This document shows, in pieces, positions 2,615 through 35,365 of a stretch of DNA of 64,000 nucleotides (position 1 is the first letter of the stretch; the number at the start of each line of letters is the position of its first letter). The stretch covers positions 1 to 64,000 of the forward strand of contig CAVTJJ010000004.1 of NCBI GenBank assembly GCA_963735035.1. Reading direction: 5' to 3'. The DNA is from an uncultured candidate division Zixibacteria bacterium (GTDB taxonomy: Bacteria; Zixibacteria; MSB-5A5; GN15; FEB-12). A program made the translations under genes and the position numbers. Under the pieces are notes generated by a model. It was not told the origin of the DNA, made no database searches, and was given only the letters and a program-made list of their open reading frames with translations.

Positions 2615-3145
2615 ATGCGATTCAAATCGATACTACCGTACGCGGCCGTGGTTGTCATGCTGGCGGCACCGCTGGCGCGCGCCGAAGATGATACGTCGCT
2701 GCCGACTGCGGCCCCCGACTCGGGTGAGCGTATCAACCGTCAGGTGATGGCGTCGGGCGGCGCTGTGAACCTGAGTTCGGCGAATTATCATATGAGCGCG
2801 ACCGCCGGGCAGACCTCAGTCGGTCGCGCCGCGTCGGCGAATTACCGGGGCAATTTCGGCTTCTGGCAGACCCTGCATGCCCCCGGCTGTTGTAACGGCC
2901 GCGTCGGCGACGCCAACGGCATTGGCGGCGATGAACCGACTATCGGCGATGTCTCGAGCATGATTGATGCGAAGTTCATCTCGGGATCGTGCACAGGTGT
3001 GATTGCATGTCTGTCTGAGGCCGACATCAATCAAACTGGCGGTGCCAACCCGACCTGTGATGACATCACGATCGGTGACATCTCGATACTGATTGATTAC
3101 TTGTTTATCACGGGCCCGACACTCGGCCTGCACAATTGCCTGTGA
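2615..3145 (+). CDS. Secreted protein with a SGG..GQT..GFW domain and a Cys-rich dockerin-like C-terminus
   Basis: AAGGAG RBS; signal peptide; GCCNGRVGDANG..IGDVS / ADINQ..IGDISILIDYLF duplicated Ca-binding loop. Confidence 0.75.
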   Translation: MRFKSILPYAAVVVMLAAPLARAEDDTSLPTAAPDSGERINRQVMASGGAVNLSSANYHMSATAGQTSVGRAASANYRGNFGFWQTLHAPGCCNGRVGDANGIGGDEPTIGDVSSMIDAKFISGSCTGVIACLSEADINQTGGANPTCDDITIGDISILIDYLFITGPTLGLHNCL

Positions 3146-3179
3146 TGTATGTAGTGTGTGTACGGTGATGCCTCCTCTT

Positions 3180-3726
3180 TGTCTTGCCCCGGTTTAGCCG
3201 GGGGACCCAAGGGTTGAGTAAACCGTGCCCGGCAGATGTCCACATCTGCCGACTTATGTGCATATACCGCATGTACTGTCATGCCCCGGCGTCTCTTCTC
3301 TGTCTTGCCCCGGCTTGACCGGGGCACACAAATTTGATCGGCAGGCCTCTGTGCCTGCCGTCCGGGTGGCCCACCATTTATGGTGGGATGGAACATTACG
3401 GAGCGCAAGCTCTGTCACCCCGGTGTAAGGGCTTGTTGAAAAACTCCCCCGAATGTTGTTGCGTCAGGTCTTGCGCCGCCACAGGCGGCGTGTGACCTGA
3501 CACGTTGCAGCGACTTAGGGAATCACCATCTTGCGTGGAATGATACGAATTGAGCCAAGACAGGCTTTTTCAACACTCCCGTAAACCGGGGCCCAGTTGT
3601 GTTGGAAAGAACGCCGACGCCAATGTTCGAGCTCTCACAGCGAAGGGAGAAGTCGGTCATGGCGGCATTAACTTAGCGATCACAACTGGGTCCTGGCTTC
3701 CGCCAGAATTACGGGACTGGCGTCCC
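3180..3726. repeat. REP cluster including a ~165-bp composite repeat homologous to 52746-52910 (reverse) and partly to 14413-14560
   Basis: Direct sequence comparison: TCTGTCACCCCGGTGTAAACCGGGGCCCAGTT ... AACTGGGTC(C/T)TGGCTTCCGCCAG. Confidence 0.85.
3429..3580. mobile_element. 152-bp MITE with 15-bp TIRs and 4-bp GTAA target duplication
   Basis: GGGCTTGTTGAAAAA versus reverse complement GGGAGTGTTGAAAAA (13/15 identical); GTAA at 3425-3428 and 3581-3584; empty allele at ~52877-52905. Confidence 0.85.
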
Positions 3727-3844
3727 ATTTCAAGACCCCACCCGCAAGTAACTATGATACTGTTCGTGATTTGAGCCTCTGTTCGGACAAGGTATCGTAT
3801 CGTGGTCTGAAGACAACGATAGATCCTTAGAACAGGAGGCTCAG

Positions 3845-4903
3845 ATGAGAAGGTACGAAGTTGGAGCGGAAGTGGGAAGTGCTGTTTTTGTTGGCGTGGA
3901 TGTTCACAAGCGTCAGTGGTTTGTCACGGTGAGGACGTTAGAAGTGGAACTGTTCTGTGGCAGCATTAACGGGGATTGGGCGTCTTTGCGGTGTTTGCTG
4001 GATCGGTATGATCCTGGGTGTGTGTCCGTGGTTTACGAGGCGGGTTTTTCTGGTTTTTGGCTGCACGACTGTGTGGTAGCGTGGGGTGGTCAGTGCGTAG
4101 TAACGCCGCCGAGCTTGGTGCCGATGGCCTACGGTAATCGGGTGAAGACGGACAAGCGGGATAGCCGGAAGCTGGCCTGGTTGCTGTCGTTAGGGTTGTT
4201 GAAGAAGGTCTGGGTTCCGGATGAGAGTCAGCGGGGTCACCGAGAGGTCTTACGTCGTCGTCGTCAATTGGTTCAAGATCGGGTACGTCTTCAGAGTCGG
4301 ATCAAATCGGAGTTGGCCTTATATGGTATTTCAGTGTGCAGTGGGACGGGTCGGTGGACCGGTCCGTTATTAGAGCGTCTGAGACAGGTGTGTTTGGCAG
4401 ATGTCTGGGCTCAGGCGAGCTACGAGCGGTTGTTGGAGATGTACGATCTGGTAAGTAACCAGCTGGCGTTGCAGACACGACTGTTGCGGGAGTTGTCACG
4501 ACTGCCACAGTATCGTGATCGAGTTCGGCTGTTAAGTAGCGTTCCCGGCATAGGGGTTATTACGGCGATGGCTCTGCTGTTGGAATTGCATGAGGTCGGT
4601 CGTTTTGGACGGGCTGAGCAATTGGCGGCTTATGTGGGACTGACACCTTCGCAGTATTCCAGCGGTGATCATGTCCGGATGGGTCGGATTACCGGCACGG
4701 GCAACAGCTATCTTCGGGGCTTGTTAGTGGAATCGTCCTGGATTGCCGTTCGGAAGGACCCACACTTACAACTGGTCTATAACCGGATCAAGCAACGTGC
4801 CGGCGGCAAACGAGCCATAGTGGCGGTAGCTCGACGACTGGTCTTGGCAGTCAGGCGGGTTCTGCTTGATAACGTTGCCTATGAGCCGTGTGCGGCCGCC
4901 TAA
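3845..4903 (+). CDS. IS110 family transposase/recombinase (DEDD RuvC-like + Tnp20 domain)
   Basis: GVDVHK, YEAG, KTDKRDS, VPGIG, LAAYVGLTPSQYSSG, AIVAVARRL motifs; AGGAGG RBS. Confidence 0.96.
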   Translation: MRRYEVGAEVGSAVFVGVDVHKRQWFVTVRTLEVELFCGSINGDWASLRCLLDRYDPGCVSVVYEAGFSGFWLHDCVVAWGGQCVVTPPSLVPMAYGNRVKTDKRDSRKLAWLLSLGLLKKVWVPDESQRGHREVLRRRRQLVQDRVRLQSRIKSELALYGISVCSGTGRWTGPLLERLRQVCLADVWAQASYERLLEMYDLVSNQLALQTRLLRELSRLPQYRDRVRLLSSVPGIGVITAMALLLELHEVGRFGRAEQLAAYVGLTPSQYSSGDHVRMGRITGTGNSYLRGLLVESSWIAVRKDPHLQLVYNRIKQRAGGKRAIVAVARRLVLAVRRVLLDNVAYEPCAAA

Positions 4904-5113
4904 GATAACCAAGGAGTCGGAACCGTACCAAGCTAACGCGAGAACAGCGACCCACCCGCTGTGGCTCGGGCCAACCGAGACCACGTCCGCAAGTCTGCTG
5001 CCTCGCCAGGTCACGAGCGGATACATTGCCTGTGGCGCTGCCAGTCAGCGACCACGAATAGCAGACTGGTTCGAGTCCTATGCCTGAACAGAAAGCCCTT
5101 GACACAGTACATA
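4904..5113 (+). ncRNA. Candidate bridge RNA / seekRNA
   Basis: ~210-nt structured non-coding end downstream of the IS110 transposase; contains CCCACCCGCTG (4951-4961) matching the target site and ATAGCA (5058-5063) matching the donor junction. Confidence 0.65.
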
Positions 5114-5184
5114 GCAGCGGGTGGGCCACCCACCGCGGCGAGGTTTCGACACTCACGGCGGCAGAACCACCAATGGGTTCTGCC

Positions 5185-5676
5185 CTACTTGTCGAACATG
5201 TCCGCTTCCGAGTCGATCACTCTTGTACCGGCTAAGTAATCGTGGAGGCACCTTCGCTCCCTTCCGAAGATGAACAAGATATCCGCTACCGCAAACAAAC
5301 TGCCGGCGAAAGGAACCGCGTACATGAATGATGGCACGGCATACCGAAGTCCCGCGGTTCGAGCCAGGCTTGGAGTCTCTCCGGTGAGAAGAACGATTCT
5401 CGTTTTCACAAGATACTTGCCGATTGTCTGTCCTCTCTTGTGCAGCAGGTATCCGTGTAATGAAAGAAATACTGCGAGACCGAATGTTGCCCATGCAATC
5501 GACTTAGCCAGTGTCGGATCGGTATCGAACTCCAACCACCCGCTGAGCAACATGGCCACGCCTATCGGTGCTTGAATTAAGCCATCAAGAAGTGCTCCCC
5601 CAAGCCTCTTTCCCCGGCTTGCTAATTGCGGGTAGTCACCGACCGCACTACTGATGCCTTCCAGTTCTCGCTTCAT
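5185..5676 (-). CDS. RDD family membrane protein
   Basis: LASRGKRLGGALLD, GQTIGK, R.LHDYLAGTRV motifs. Confidence 0.9.
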   Translation of the reverse strand: MKRELEGISSAVGDYPQLASRGKRLGGALLDGLIQAPIGVAMLLSGWLEFDTDPTLAKSIAWATFGLAVFLSLHGYLLHKRGQTIGKYLVKTRIVLLTGETPSLARTAGLRYAVPSFMYAVPFAGSLFAVADILFIFGRERRCLHDYLAGTRVIDSEADMFDK

Positions 5677-5979
5677 TGATTGGGACCTCGCGAGGTAATA
5701 TATCGCCAGTTGTCTCTTTTTCCAAGCTGATTTTCTTCTCCTGAAGGTGCACAGACTAAGTTGTTTCGCCTAGCTGTTGACATATGTTCTCGTACGCAAG
5801 CGAAGACGTGGTGGACGAGGACGCCCACCACGCACACAAATAAACGAAGGCCGGACAAGAATTTGTCCGGCCTGGGACGGGCCTTGCTGATAAGGCCCGG
5901 TCTGTTTTGGTTGCGCAGTAGATGTGGGCATCTACCGGCCACTTCATGTGAGCCTGCCACTGAGGACCGGCCGTAAGTT

Positions 5980-6933
5980 CTACGCGCCCCCCGACCCCGC
6001 CGTTGGTGATTTCTTGGCCGGCTCAGGGCTGTTTGTTTTGATCCCTTCCACCATCGCCGACAACGCCGACATAATCCCGCTCGCCTCATACGGCATGAAG
6101 ATCTTGTTGGCGGTTCCCTGCGCCAGATGCGGCAACATCTCCAAATACTTGAGTGTTATCAGCTTGTCGTCCGGCTGACCCTCGTGGATAGCGCCAAAAA
6201 CGGTCGCGATCGCTTGCCCCTCACCCTCGGCCACCGCAATCTGACGGTAGCGCTCGGCATCAGCCCGCCGCCTGACCGCCTCGGCGCCGCCCTCAGCTTC
6301 GAGAATCTGCGCCAGTTTGGAGCCCTCAGCCTTGGTAATTTCCGACTGCTTCAGCGCCTCGGCGTCGAGAATCGTGGCGCGCTTGTCACGCTCGGCTTTC
6401 ATCTGACGGCTCATAGCGTCGGTGATGTCGGCCGGCGGGTCAATGCGCTGCAGTTCGATTCGGTTGACCTTCACGCCCCACTTGTCGGTGGCCGTGTCCA
6501 TCACATTGCGCAGTTGCAGGTTGATCTGATCGCGCGACGACAGACAGGCGTCCAGATCCATTTCGCCGATCACGTTACGCAGGTTGGTCTGCGCCAGTTT
6601 GGTGGCGGCGTGAACATAGTTGTAAATTTCATAGCGCGAGCGGAACGGATCGGTCACCTGGAAATAGATGATCGCGTCGACTTCAACACCGACGTTGTCC
6701 TTGGTGATCACCAGTTGCGCGGGCACGTCGATCACCACCTCGCGCATATCAACTTTGGCGACCGTGTCAAAAAATGGCAGGATCAGGTTGAGCCCCGGGT
6801 CGAGCACCCGCTGGAACTTGCCCAGCCGTTCCACCAGGCCCTTTTCGTACGGCCGGATGATTCGCACCGACATGGTAACCAGCGCGAACGACAGTACGAC
6901 GATGACTCCTATCAGTATGGTGATTTCAGGCAC
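5980..6933 (-). CDS. SPFH/band 7 (QmcA/stomatin-like) protein
   Basis: N-terminal TM helix, VERLGKF, VITKDNV, QMKAERDKRA motifs. Confidence 0.95.
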   Translation of the reverse strand: MPEITILIGVIVVLSFALVTMSVRIIRPYEKGLVERLGKFQRVLDPGLNLILPFFDTVAKVDMREVVIDVPAQLVITKDNVGVEVDAIIYFQVTDPFRSRYEIYNYVHAATKLAQTNLRNVIGEMDLDACLSSRDQINLQLRNVMDTATDKWGVKVNRIELQRIDPPADITDAMSRQMKAERDKRATILDAEALKQSEITKAEGSKLAQILEAEGGAEAVRRRADAERYRQIAVAEGEGQAIATVFGAIHEGQPDDKLITLKYLEMLPHLAQGTANKIFMPYEASGIMSALSAMVEGIKTNSPEPAKKSPTAGSGGA

Positions 6934-7922: not shown

Positions 7923-8408
7923 ATGGGACTCCGTTTTCGGGATCAAGTGAATGGCTCTTGTTTCTTCGTCACCACCAGTTTCCATCAACGTCAACGATTC
8001 GGTGATGTGCCGGGAGTATATGAAGCTCTAGCAGACTCCTTGCGCTACTATATCGCAAAATACCAAACCTTACTCCCGGCCTACGTTTTCATGCCAACCC
8101 ACATCCATCTCTTACTCATGATAGATGGCGGCCGCTTGGGCCCGTTCATGAGAGATTTCAAGAAGTTTGTTTCTCAGAAGAGTTCGAGGGATTGTGGTTT
8201 TTCTACAACTCCGTTTTGGCAGCCTCGATACGATCGAGTAGTCATTGAAACTGAAAGTTCGTTTCGCCAGAAGTTAGAGTACATTCATCAAAATCCGGTC
8301 AAAGCCGGATTGACCGGAGAACCCAACTCTTGGAACTGGTCTTCCGCGCCAGCGTATCTCTTTTCTGTGCCCGGGACCGTTCCAGTCTGGAAGGATTGGC
8401 ATTTCTAA
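7923..8408 (+). CDS. REP-associated tyrosine transposase (RAYT/TnpA-REP, IS200-like HUH)
   Basis: FFVTT, YVFMPTHIHLL (HUH), FWQPRY, YIHQNPVKAGL, WNWSS; flanked by inverted REPs. Confidence 0.92.
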   Translation: MGLRFRDQVNGSCFFVTTSFHQRQRFGDVPGVYEALADSLRYYIAKYQTLLPAYVFMPTHIHLLLMIDGGRLGPFMRDFKKFVSQKSSRDCGFSTTPFWQPRYDRVVIETESSFRQKLEYIHQNPVKAGLTGEPNSWNWSSAPAYLFSVPGTVPVWKDWHF

Positions 8409-34979: not shown

Positions 34980-35365
34980 TTGGATGCCCCGGTTAAACCG
35001 GGGCATGCAGTGAGGCCGCTGTCATTCACGTGCCCGGCAGATGTCCACATCTGCCAGACTCGTACACAAAACATCCTTAGGTGGCCCACCCGTTTGCGGG
35101 CGGGGAAACACATCCACTCACCGGACCAGTACCCCACCCAACGGGTGGGTTGCTAATCTCGACGGGGCGTAAGCCCCGTCAGAGGTCGGGGGCCTATGAC
35201 CAATGCGCTCGGAAGATTCAAATCACTCACCGTTGGCAAACCGTTAGATTAGGTCATCCTTCCGAAAACGAGTATCAAGTCTTCTGCCACCATCGCCGCA
35301 CTTGCCGCCAGTTTCTTTCATTCTGTCGCACACCTCATGGGCACCCGTCTTCACGGGGGTGACGG
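34980..35365. repeat. REP cluster between TonB receptor and SSS genes
   Basis: TGCCCCGGTTAAACCGGGGCA, GTGCCCGGCAGATGTCCACATCTGCC, GTGGCCCACCCG..CGGGCGGG and others. Confidence 0.8.

Follow-up and report, generated by a model that had tools for sequence, protein, structure and literature searches.

An IS1111-Type Insertion Sequence in REP Sequences of an Uncultured Zixibacteria Genome: Ends, Target Site, and Predicted Guide RNA

Introduction

Where does an insertion sequence (IS) begin and end when the site that it occupies is itself a repeat, what selects that site, and how does the element come to be expressed? These questions are raised by a locus near the start of a contig from an uncultured Zixibacteria bacterium. 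The window, the whole stretch of DNA analyzed here, is 64,000 nucleotides (nt) long and represents positions 1-64000 of contig C4 of a six-contig, 3.6-Mb metagenome-assembled genome (MAG; G000, GenBank assembly GCA_963735035.1, contig CAVTJJ010000004.1). At 3749..5117 on its plus strand lies an IS that interrupts a repetitive extragenic palindromic (REP) sequence. A preliminary description of this DNA had recognized an IS1111-like element in a REP, with promoter halves at its two ends; the sequence features and the insertion in a REP hold up, whereas the delimitation proves to be one base off. The element is an IS110-family insertion sequence with an IS1111-type layout, and we consider it highly probable (about 0.85) that it is active or was recently so, that it is guided by RNA to the AG at the center of a REP, and that the joining of its ends in a circle creates a promoter. 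The evidence that carries this reading, namely the copy number, the ends, the target subtype, the covariation of the guides and of the inverted repeats, and the conserved geometry of the promoter, is observed directly in the compared sequences.

The element would comprise a short left end, a gene for a recombinase of the DEDD/Ser kind, and a long right end encoding a guide RNA, the two internal loops of which would direct the recombinase to exchange strands at the AG that centers one REP subtype. Insertion would occur in one orientation and without target duplication. Excision would join base 5117 to base 3749, and the joined ends would place TTGACA and TATGAT 17 nt apart to form a promoter found only in the circle, which should drive both the recombinase gene and the RNA. 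What this scheme takes over from the published mechanism of the family is the exchange of strands under the guidance of RNA, the existence of a circular intermediate, and the activity of the promoter.

Copies and Relatives of the Element

A DNA search of the genome recovered five full-length copies, each of approximately 1371 nt measured from AG to AG (1369 bp for the window copy if the right AG is counted as the element's own). Four of the five are identical. The divergent copy (C4:851859-853231) differs from the others by one substitution and two one-base insertions; the substitution lies at the equivalent of window position 3822, and the insertions follow 3842, near the Shine-Dalgarno sequence, and 4997, in the outer stem of the predicted guide RNA. 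These differences could be genuine or long-read errors. Beyond about 12 nt on the left and about 14 nt on the right the flanks of the copies are unrelated to each other, so that the five represent independent insertions, and all of them lie between the same half-REPs in the same orientation. Such agreement among five copies, in both ends and half-REPs, is far beyond chance. Alignment of the other genomic copies had been proposed in the preliminary description as a check, and it yields the same boundaries and the same REP target throughout, as a site- and orientation-specific insertion would require.

The same search returned one 42-nt match and a partial copy at the extreme end of contig C3. 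The final 900 nt or so of C3 (988284-989190) repeat the start of C4 (window 3365-4400), carrying the same REP, the left flank of the window copy, and the left half of the IS at 96-99% identity with scattered substitutions and indels; this looks like an assembly overlap of contig ends, not a sixth insertion. As to the empty state of the occupied loci, the flanks of two of them could be aligned with two same-genus genomes, but the DNA identity was no more than 71-74% and the alignments did not span the insertion site. A 181-nt contig from a freshwater-sediment metagenome run (X2) joins position 3730 to position 5160 with 57 other letters between. It differs from the window flanks at 6 positions in 59 nt, which suggests a relative without the IS at the same locus; the length of the insert (57, against about 60 expected) alone decides nothing.

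Relatives of the element were sought in other genomes. A protein-pattern scan with one genome per species gave 55 loci, for almost all of which the best-matching segment was 27-40% identical, and among 41 related genomes a single one (G039, a Zixibacteria MAG of the same order) has a 66% identical copy. The 22-nt stretch around 5058-5064, in the right end, was found at two loci in genome contigs and at six in metagenome contigs. The close set used below consists of seven elements including that of the window, the others being L102, L101, L098, L100, L099, and L064; L095 (the same as L064), L096 (near-identical to L098), and L097 (with an upstream RNA region unlike the rest) were removed from it. 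A wider comparison of 25 elements includes distant relatives, L019 and L025 having been left out of it by the end-finding rule.

Boundaries, Core Dinucleotide, and Target REP

The element and the parts of the interrupted REP are as follows.

3749..5117, plus strand: insertion sequence, present in five copies
3737..3746, plus strand: left arm of the interrupted REP (left target), CCCACCCGCA; identical in 5/5 copies
3747..3748, plus strand: core dinucleotide AG, left copy; the only overlap of the filled junctions with natural GCAAGC-centered REPs
5116..5117, plus strand: core dinucleotide AG, right copy; shared with the natural REPs and the guide segments
5118..5130, plus strand: right arm and tail of the interrupted REP, CGGGTGGGCCACC; identical in 5/5 copies

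The occupied subtype is thus the same in all copies: left arm CCCACCCGCA, core AG, and right arm CGGGTGGGCCACC. The left arm occurs 39 times in the genome, and five of these occurrences enter the IS, 13 continue AGCG, and none continues GCGGG. Because the uninterrupted sites run on in this way, the empty site is left arm, AG, and right arm, with the center GCAAGC. AG is taken as the core because these are the only bases common to both junctions and the uninterrupted form; one copy is the IS's and the other the target's, and the predicted guide segments end on AG.

In the preliminary description, the element was instead delimited by a 3-bp repeat of GCA, with a perfect 19-nt palindrome as its target (9-nt arms around an A) and an 18-nt spacer in the promoter. 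GCA does occur at both junctions (3744-3746 and again 5114-5116), as do the arms CCCACCCGC at 3737-3745 (followed by A at 3746) and GCGGGTGGG at 5117-5125, and the removal of one GCA copy does leave the perfect palindrome. However, that 19-mer matches nothing in the 3.6-Mb genome, and natural REPs are centered GCAAGC, none of them making the junction of left arm and GCGGG that this delimitation demands in place of the 13 that continue AGCG. In addition, the guides end on AG, and in 15 of the 25 elements of the wider comparison the right flank is complemented by a sequence that reads CT and not TGC; L098 and L100, which occupy unrelated targets, share AG and not GCA at the left junction; and AG gives the optimal 17-nt promoter spacer in 7/7 close elements. 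A GCA core is therefore very unlikely. The case carries a lesson for annotation, in that the restoration of a perfect palindrome is an unsafe guide to IS110-family boundaries, because the uninterrupted repeats and the guide RNA place the ends one base differently.

It might also be supposed that the conserved flanks are not target at all, and that CCCACCCGC and GCGGGTGGG are the terminal inverted repeats of a longer element that inserts at unrelated sites. BLAST identity among the copies indeed runs 10-16 nt past the ends proposed here, but the flank sequence occurs free of the IS as at least 62 REPs and 11 sites with one mismatch, and close relatives with the same IS ends have wholly different flanks; the idea is scarcely credible.

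The arm and tail motif GGTGGGCCACC matches the genome 65 times, including at 3365 and 35080 on the minus strand, and these two are the REPs that had been named at 3365-3387 and 35080-35104. A stricter oriented pattern finds 62 intact family members and the five interrupted ones, with none of the intact members belonging to the occupied subtype. The family, a short imperfect palindrome repeated genome-wide as is characteristic of REPs, has the form CCCACC-center-GGTGGG(G/C)CACC and at least 62 intact oriented members, the centers being ATAAAT (15), GCAAGC (14), TGCAAGCA (6), and rarer forms.

Occupancy of these sites is selective. The 15-nt site set by the two target guides described below has no unoccupied exact copy in the genome. 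Twelve hits with one mismatch correspond to 11 sites, since one palindromic site was matched on both strands, and all are empty; so are all 14 REPs of the GCAAGC subtype, which is cognate for the variant L102. With exact sites filled in 5/5 cases and one-mismatch sites in 0/11, every perfect site of a rare REP subtype is filled and nothing else. As is typical of the IS110 family, insertion is specific in site and orientation and takes place at a short shared core without any longer duplication.

Subterminal Inverted Repeats and the Predicted Junction Promoter

The two ends of the element carry matching repeats and the two halves of a predicted promoter.

3752..3763, plus strand: left subterminal inverted repeat, separated from the IS end by 3 nt; CTATG(a)TACTGT, pairs with 5104-5114
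5104..5114, plus strand: right subterminal inverted repeat, ACAGTACATAG; pairs with 3752-3763
5099..5104, plus strand: TTGACA, predicted -35 hexamer of the junction promoter; followed by 13 nt of the IS in 7/7 close elements
3753..3758, plus strand: TATGAT, predicted -10 hexamer of the junction promoter; preceded by 4 nt of the IS in 7/7 close elements

The inverted repeats form 11 pairs, with one extra base on the left, and so fall within the 11-13 bp usual for IS1111; a generic repeat finder missed them because of the one-base bulge. Their variable part changes in parallel at both ends in 7/7 relatives (6-7 of 8 positions identical), so that the repeats noted in the preliminary description not only exist but covary.

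Both hexamers are also present where that description had placed them. The right end holds the -35 box and the left end the -10 box, an arrangement that would yield a promoter only when the ends are joined. The geometry TTGAC(A/T)-17-TATGNN is conserved in 7/7 close relatives, and the -35 box is found at the same distance from the end in distant relatives as well. The spacer is 17 nt because the ends are joined with a single AG, contributing 13 and 4 nt; the 18 bp given before does not survive the assignment of AG as the shared dinucleotide, and the circle-junction read proposed at the same time is one A too long. A consensus scan of the integrated element and its flanks (3500-5400) revealed no promoter-like site (0 found, 0.9 expected). 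This fits a gene that would be switched on mainly in the circle, and circle-dependent expression has been described for IS621 and ISEc11 (PMC12288879).

A Predicted Guide RNA in the Right End

The non-coding ends of the element are unequal, with 96 nt upstream of the gene (3749-3844) and 214 nt downstream (4904-5117), and the longer end downstream is the arrangement described for the IS1111 type (PMC11187229; PMC11208160). To judge from its sequence, the 214-nt 3' non-coding end encodes a predicted two-loop RNA of the seekRNA/bridge RNA kind, with the following parts.

4938..5006, plus strand: target-binding module, outer stem approximately 4938-4949 with 4994-5006; 7/11 outer-stem pairs keep pairing through two-sided changes
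4951..4960, plus strand: right-target guide CCCACCCGCT; exact complement of top-strand AG + CGGGTGGG
4961..4984, plus strand: distal hairpin of the target-binding module, from the fold and the alignment consensus
4987..4993, plus strand: left-target guide CCGCAAG; identical to CCGCA + AG, pairs with the bottom strand
5021..5031, plus strand: 5' strand of the second (donor) loop, placed by loop position in the consensus structure
5032..5055, plus strand: distal hairpin of the donor-binding module, GTGG...CCAC; built like 4961-4984, with compensatory changes at 3 pairs
5058..5064, plus strand: left-donor guide ATAGCAG; same sequence as the 7 nt that close the IS, counting AG

The outer stem of the target module encloses the two target guide strands and a hairpin, and at the right-target guide 11 nt are perfectly complementary to 5115-5125. 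The segment complementary to the top strand (4951-4960) comes first and the match to the bottom strand (4987-4993) second, with an overlap at the point of insertion; the same order is reported for IS1111-type seekRNAs and is the reverse of that of IS621 (PMC11187229). Among 3000 shuffled sequences a complement of at least 10 nt arose in 14, and all three matches jointly in none. An alignment of the seven RNA regions of the close set gave a consensus of two modules with 32 pairs, 11 of which show compensatory changes. As is characteristic of the IS110 family, the loops are complementary to both target strands and to an IS end, two of the seven close relatives excepted. The choice of target would thus be due to a guide RNA, of which the preliminary description made no mention.

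Covariation of Guides and Targets

Further evidence that the loops act as guides comes from the relatives. The right-target guide follows the element's own right flank over 9-10 nt in five of the seven close elements, and non-cognate pairs of guide and flank within the set reach at most 6 nt, one related pair excepted.

Window element: right-flank match 10/10
L102: right-flank match 10/10; guide differs at two bases, element lies in a REP of the GCAAGC subtype
L101: right-flank match 9; element lies in a second REP type
L098: right-flank match 9; unrelated, A+T-richer site
L100: right-flank match 10; unrelated, A+T-richer site

The left-target guides likewise track the left flanks (CCGCAAG, CAGCAAG, AAAAG, AATAG). 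Over the 25 elements of the wider comparison the longest complement between guide and flank averaged 7.36 nt for cognate and 4.76 nt for non-cognate combinations (600 pairs), with matches of at least 8 nt in 9/25 and 13/600, respectively, and the best match began on AG in 15/25. At the donor side, 21 of 27 distant loci have, at the position of 5058-5064, a 7-mer that repeats the 7 nt at the end of the same element (ATAGAAG, ATAAAAG, ATAACAG, ATAGCGG).

These comparisons bear on a further explanation, by which the recombinase would read the REP hairpin or sequence directly, in the manner of single-strand transposases, the RNA matches being by-products of a palindromic, G+C-rich target. The palindrome does present CCCACCCGC in either orientation, short matches of high G+C content are no great rarity (14/3000 and 136/3000 shuffles), and two of the seven relatives occupy sites that misfit their guides. 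Against this, the guides of L098 and L100 track non-REP, A+T-rich targets over 9-10 nt, cognate and non-cognate matches differ clearly across the 25 elements, the guides occupy the same loop positions of a structure with 11 compensatory pairs, and RNA guidance has been demonstrated experimentally for IS1111-type relatives (PMC11187229). Direct recognition of the REP is accordingly improbable.

Several observations nevertheless weigh against RNA guidance and an IS1111-type organization. Matches of 7 nt are not rare by themselves, the length of the left-donor match being reached in 136/3000 shuffles. The single-sequence fold of 4925-5085 is no better than that of shuffled sequences (z -1.36; 12/200 as good), for which reason the RNA structure rests on the alignment, and no Rfam family was found on the RNA region (3000-6000 searched, E up to 1). 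When the left end was compared by eye with the 5' strand of the donor loop, in seven close and four distant relatives, no convincing right-donor guide emerged; the comparison offered no more than a 3-4-nt match with a 3-nt spacer and one possible covariation (L098), and a tentative pairing of 3 nt, a bulge, and CU with AG+TAA. In the wider comparison the best match lies off the core in 10/25 elements, and many distant relatives reach just 5-6 nt. Two of the seven close relatives, L099 and L064, lie in sites that misfit their own guides: L099, from a metagenome contig, carries L101-type guides that its site fits at 8/10 and 6/7 positions (counted by hand), and the guide of L064/L095 (G039) fits only after a 3-nt shift of the right flank. 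These misfits may reflect off-target insertion, later mutation of the site, or drift of the guide. Finally, the extensions beyond the inverted repeats are 3 nt (TAA) on the left and 1 nt (C) on the right plus the shared AG, that is, 5/1 or 3/3 depending on where AG is counted, and depart from the 7 (or 6) bp on the left and 3 bp on the right given in published accounts of the IS1111 family. Boundaries drawn to 7 bp and 3 bp (Hall-type) were tried and rejected, as the 16-bp site that they imply is absent from window and genome.

RNA guidance to the REP center remains the preferred reading, and on it a more particular and tentative picture can be drawn, which as a whole we regard as possible, though short of probable. 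The window element would be one lineage of a little-known IS1111-like clade found in Zixibacteria, Ignavibacteria, Nitrospirota, Desulfobacterota-type MAGs, and others, the close relatives of which appear to have been re-programmed in nature from one subtype to another within a single host REP family. The element of the window would read the CGCAAGCG center, L102 the GCAAGC subtype (present 14 times in this genome and unoccupied), and L101 a REP of a second type. It seems that each element is able to fill all of its perfect sites and to spare those with one mismatch. RNA may guide only half of donor recognition, with the covarying subterminal inverted repeats perhaps supplying the rest, since a clear guide exists for the left donor and none of canonical form was detected for the right donor. 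If true, this would provide a series of natural specificities among bridge-type recombinases, and it would hint that the donor complex of the IS1111 type differs from that of IS621.

The Recombinase Gene and Its 5' Untranslated Region

The gene and the structure that precedes it are the remaining features of the element.

3845..4903, plus strand: transposase/recombinase gene, 352 amino acids; PF01548, PF02371, NF033542
3764..3850, plus strand: hairpin in the 5' untranslated region (UTR) burying the Shine-Dalgarno sequence GGAGG (3835-3839) and the ATG (3845), identified by its fold against shuffled sequences

The protein belongs to the IS110 family by its domains, as its insertion behavior would also indicate. 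PF01548, the N-terminal DEDD/RuvC-like domain, spans residues 16-159 (E 1.4e-12; 48.1 bits, the cut-off being 29), and D19, E65, D103, and D106 are candidate DEDD residues of the catalytic domain on the basis of motifs. PF02371, the C-terminal domain, covers residues 228-312 (E 2.4e-25), and with 226.7 bits the protein is well above the cut-off of 140 for the profile NF033542, "IS110 family RNA-guided transposase". The C-terminal domain can be aligned with the solved recombinases of IS621 and ISCro4 at E values of about 1e-11 (1.5e-11 for IS621), with YSSG (S273-G274) opposite the YESG of both, the segment that holds the catalytic serine (PMC11208158); no significant alignment of the N-terminal domain with that of IS621 was obtained. 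The stretch G265-L266-T-P268-SQYS-S273-G274 corresponds to the motif GL-P----S(t)G, the form GL-P----SG being given for IS1111-type transposases (PMC11187229). The presence of both domains, together with the non-coding layout and the subterminal inverted repeats, bears out the earlier assignment to the IS110 family with IS1111-type anatomy. Matches of the recombinase in a plasmid collection reach at most 37% identity and are named just "IS110 family transposase"; those from enterobacterial plasmids align over residues 190-298 only.

The 5' UTR hairpin is unusually stable (-38.8 kcal/mol, z -5.68; 0/200 shuffles fold as well). In it GAGCCTC pairs with the Shine-Dalgarno and start region GGAGGCTCAGATG, and this anti-Shine-Dalgarno stem (GAGCCTC/GAGGCTC) is invariant in 6/6 relatives and shows no compensatory changes. 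By analogy with the 5' UTR described for ISPpu9, the hairpin probably dampens translation.

Relationship to Known IS110-Family Elements

The layout, the inverted repeats, the protein motif, and the order of the guides fit the IS1111 type, most hallmarks of which are present; the lengths of the extensions do not conform. The closest parallels are ISPa11 and ISEc11, IS1111-type elements with a demonstrated seekRNA. As described for these two, there is a long non-coding region downstream of the gene, subterminal inverted repeats, the GL-P----SG motif, no target duplication, a promoter (here predicted) made by the joining of the ends, and an RNA (here likewise predicted) that carries its match to the top strand 5' of that to the bottom strand, with an overlap of the two where insertion occurs; ISPa11 also targets a REP (PMC11187229). 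Unlike them, the element described here has a recombinase no more than 37-39% identical to anything in the genome and plasmid collections, extensions of 3 and 1 nt plus AG in place of 7 and 3, a one-base bulge in its inverted repeats, and a Zixibacteria MAG as host, and it is known from sequence alone.

ISPpu9 and ISPpu10 of Pseudomonas putida KT2440 are also multi-copy elements at a specific position of a REP, and in the account given of them the recombination of ISPpu9 takes place at an AG that the IS has in common with its target, its structured 5' UTR inhibits translation, as may the hairpin here, and circles of ISPpu10 form a strong hybrid promoter of -35 and -10 boxes comparable to the junction promoter predicted here (PMC12288879). 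ISPpu9 differs in that it is there assigned to the IS110 group, which lacks terminal inverted repeats, and in having a promoter of its own, an antisense RNA, and a separately mobile sRNA module (PMC12288879); in the present element no promoter-like site was found in the integrated form and the guide RNA is predicted 3' of the gene. IS621 of Escherichia coli, a member of the IS110 group, shares the DEDD and serine recombinase and the REP target and has a junction promoter such as is predicted here, but its RNA is described as lying in the left end with guides in the order left then right, a CT core, and inverted repeats of 2-3 bp (PMC11208160; PMC11208158), in contrast to a predicted RNA in the right end, guides in the order right then left, an AG core, and inverted repeats of 11-12 bp here.

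REP targeting by IS110/IS1111 elements has thus been published for IS621, ISPpu9, ISPpu10, and ISPa11 (PMC12288879; PMC11187229), and the claim of a new target made for this locus holds for the REP of this host and not for the targeting of REPs as such. A literature search combining Zixibacteria with IS110 found no paper. The family is already known for its targeting of REPs, its junction promoters, and its guide RNAs, and the element itself is new but otherwise ordinary. Its interest lies in being an IS1111-type element of an uncultured phylum that is present in several copies and has clear limits, the target, core, guides, inverted repeats, and predicted junction promoter of which can be read from the sequence and checked against naturally re-programmed relatives. 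For the engineering of bridge RNAs and seekRNAs it would offer high natural discrimination between targets, an AG core, and a compact two-loop RNA in the right end.

Neighboring Sequences

The genome has six matches to PF01797 (Y1 transposase, RAYT-like), one of them in the window at 8010-8294 on the plus strand (24.4 bits); REPs of the type described here do not occur within 900 bp of any of the six, and so show no RAYT link. Downstream of the IS, in intergenic DNA at 5838-5945 on the plus strand, the Rfam family SraC/RyeA gave a match below threshold (31.1 bits against a gathering cut-off of 37; E 0.0018), which is probably due to chance. The intergenic regions in which the REPs lie also hold other types of hairpin repeat, among them CCCACAGCAAGCTGTGGGG and GGCAGA...TCTGCC hairpins such as that at 5163-5187.

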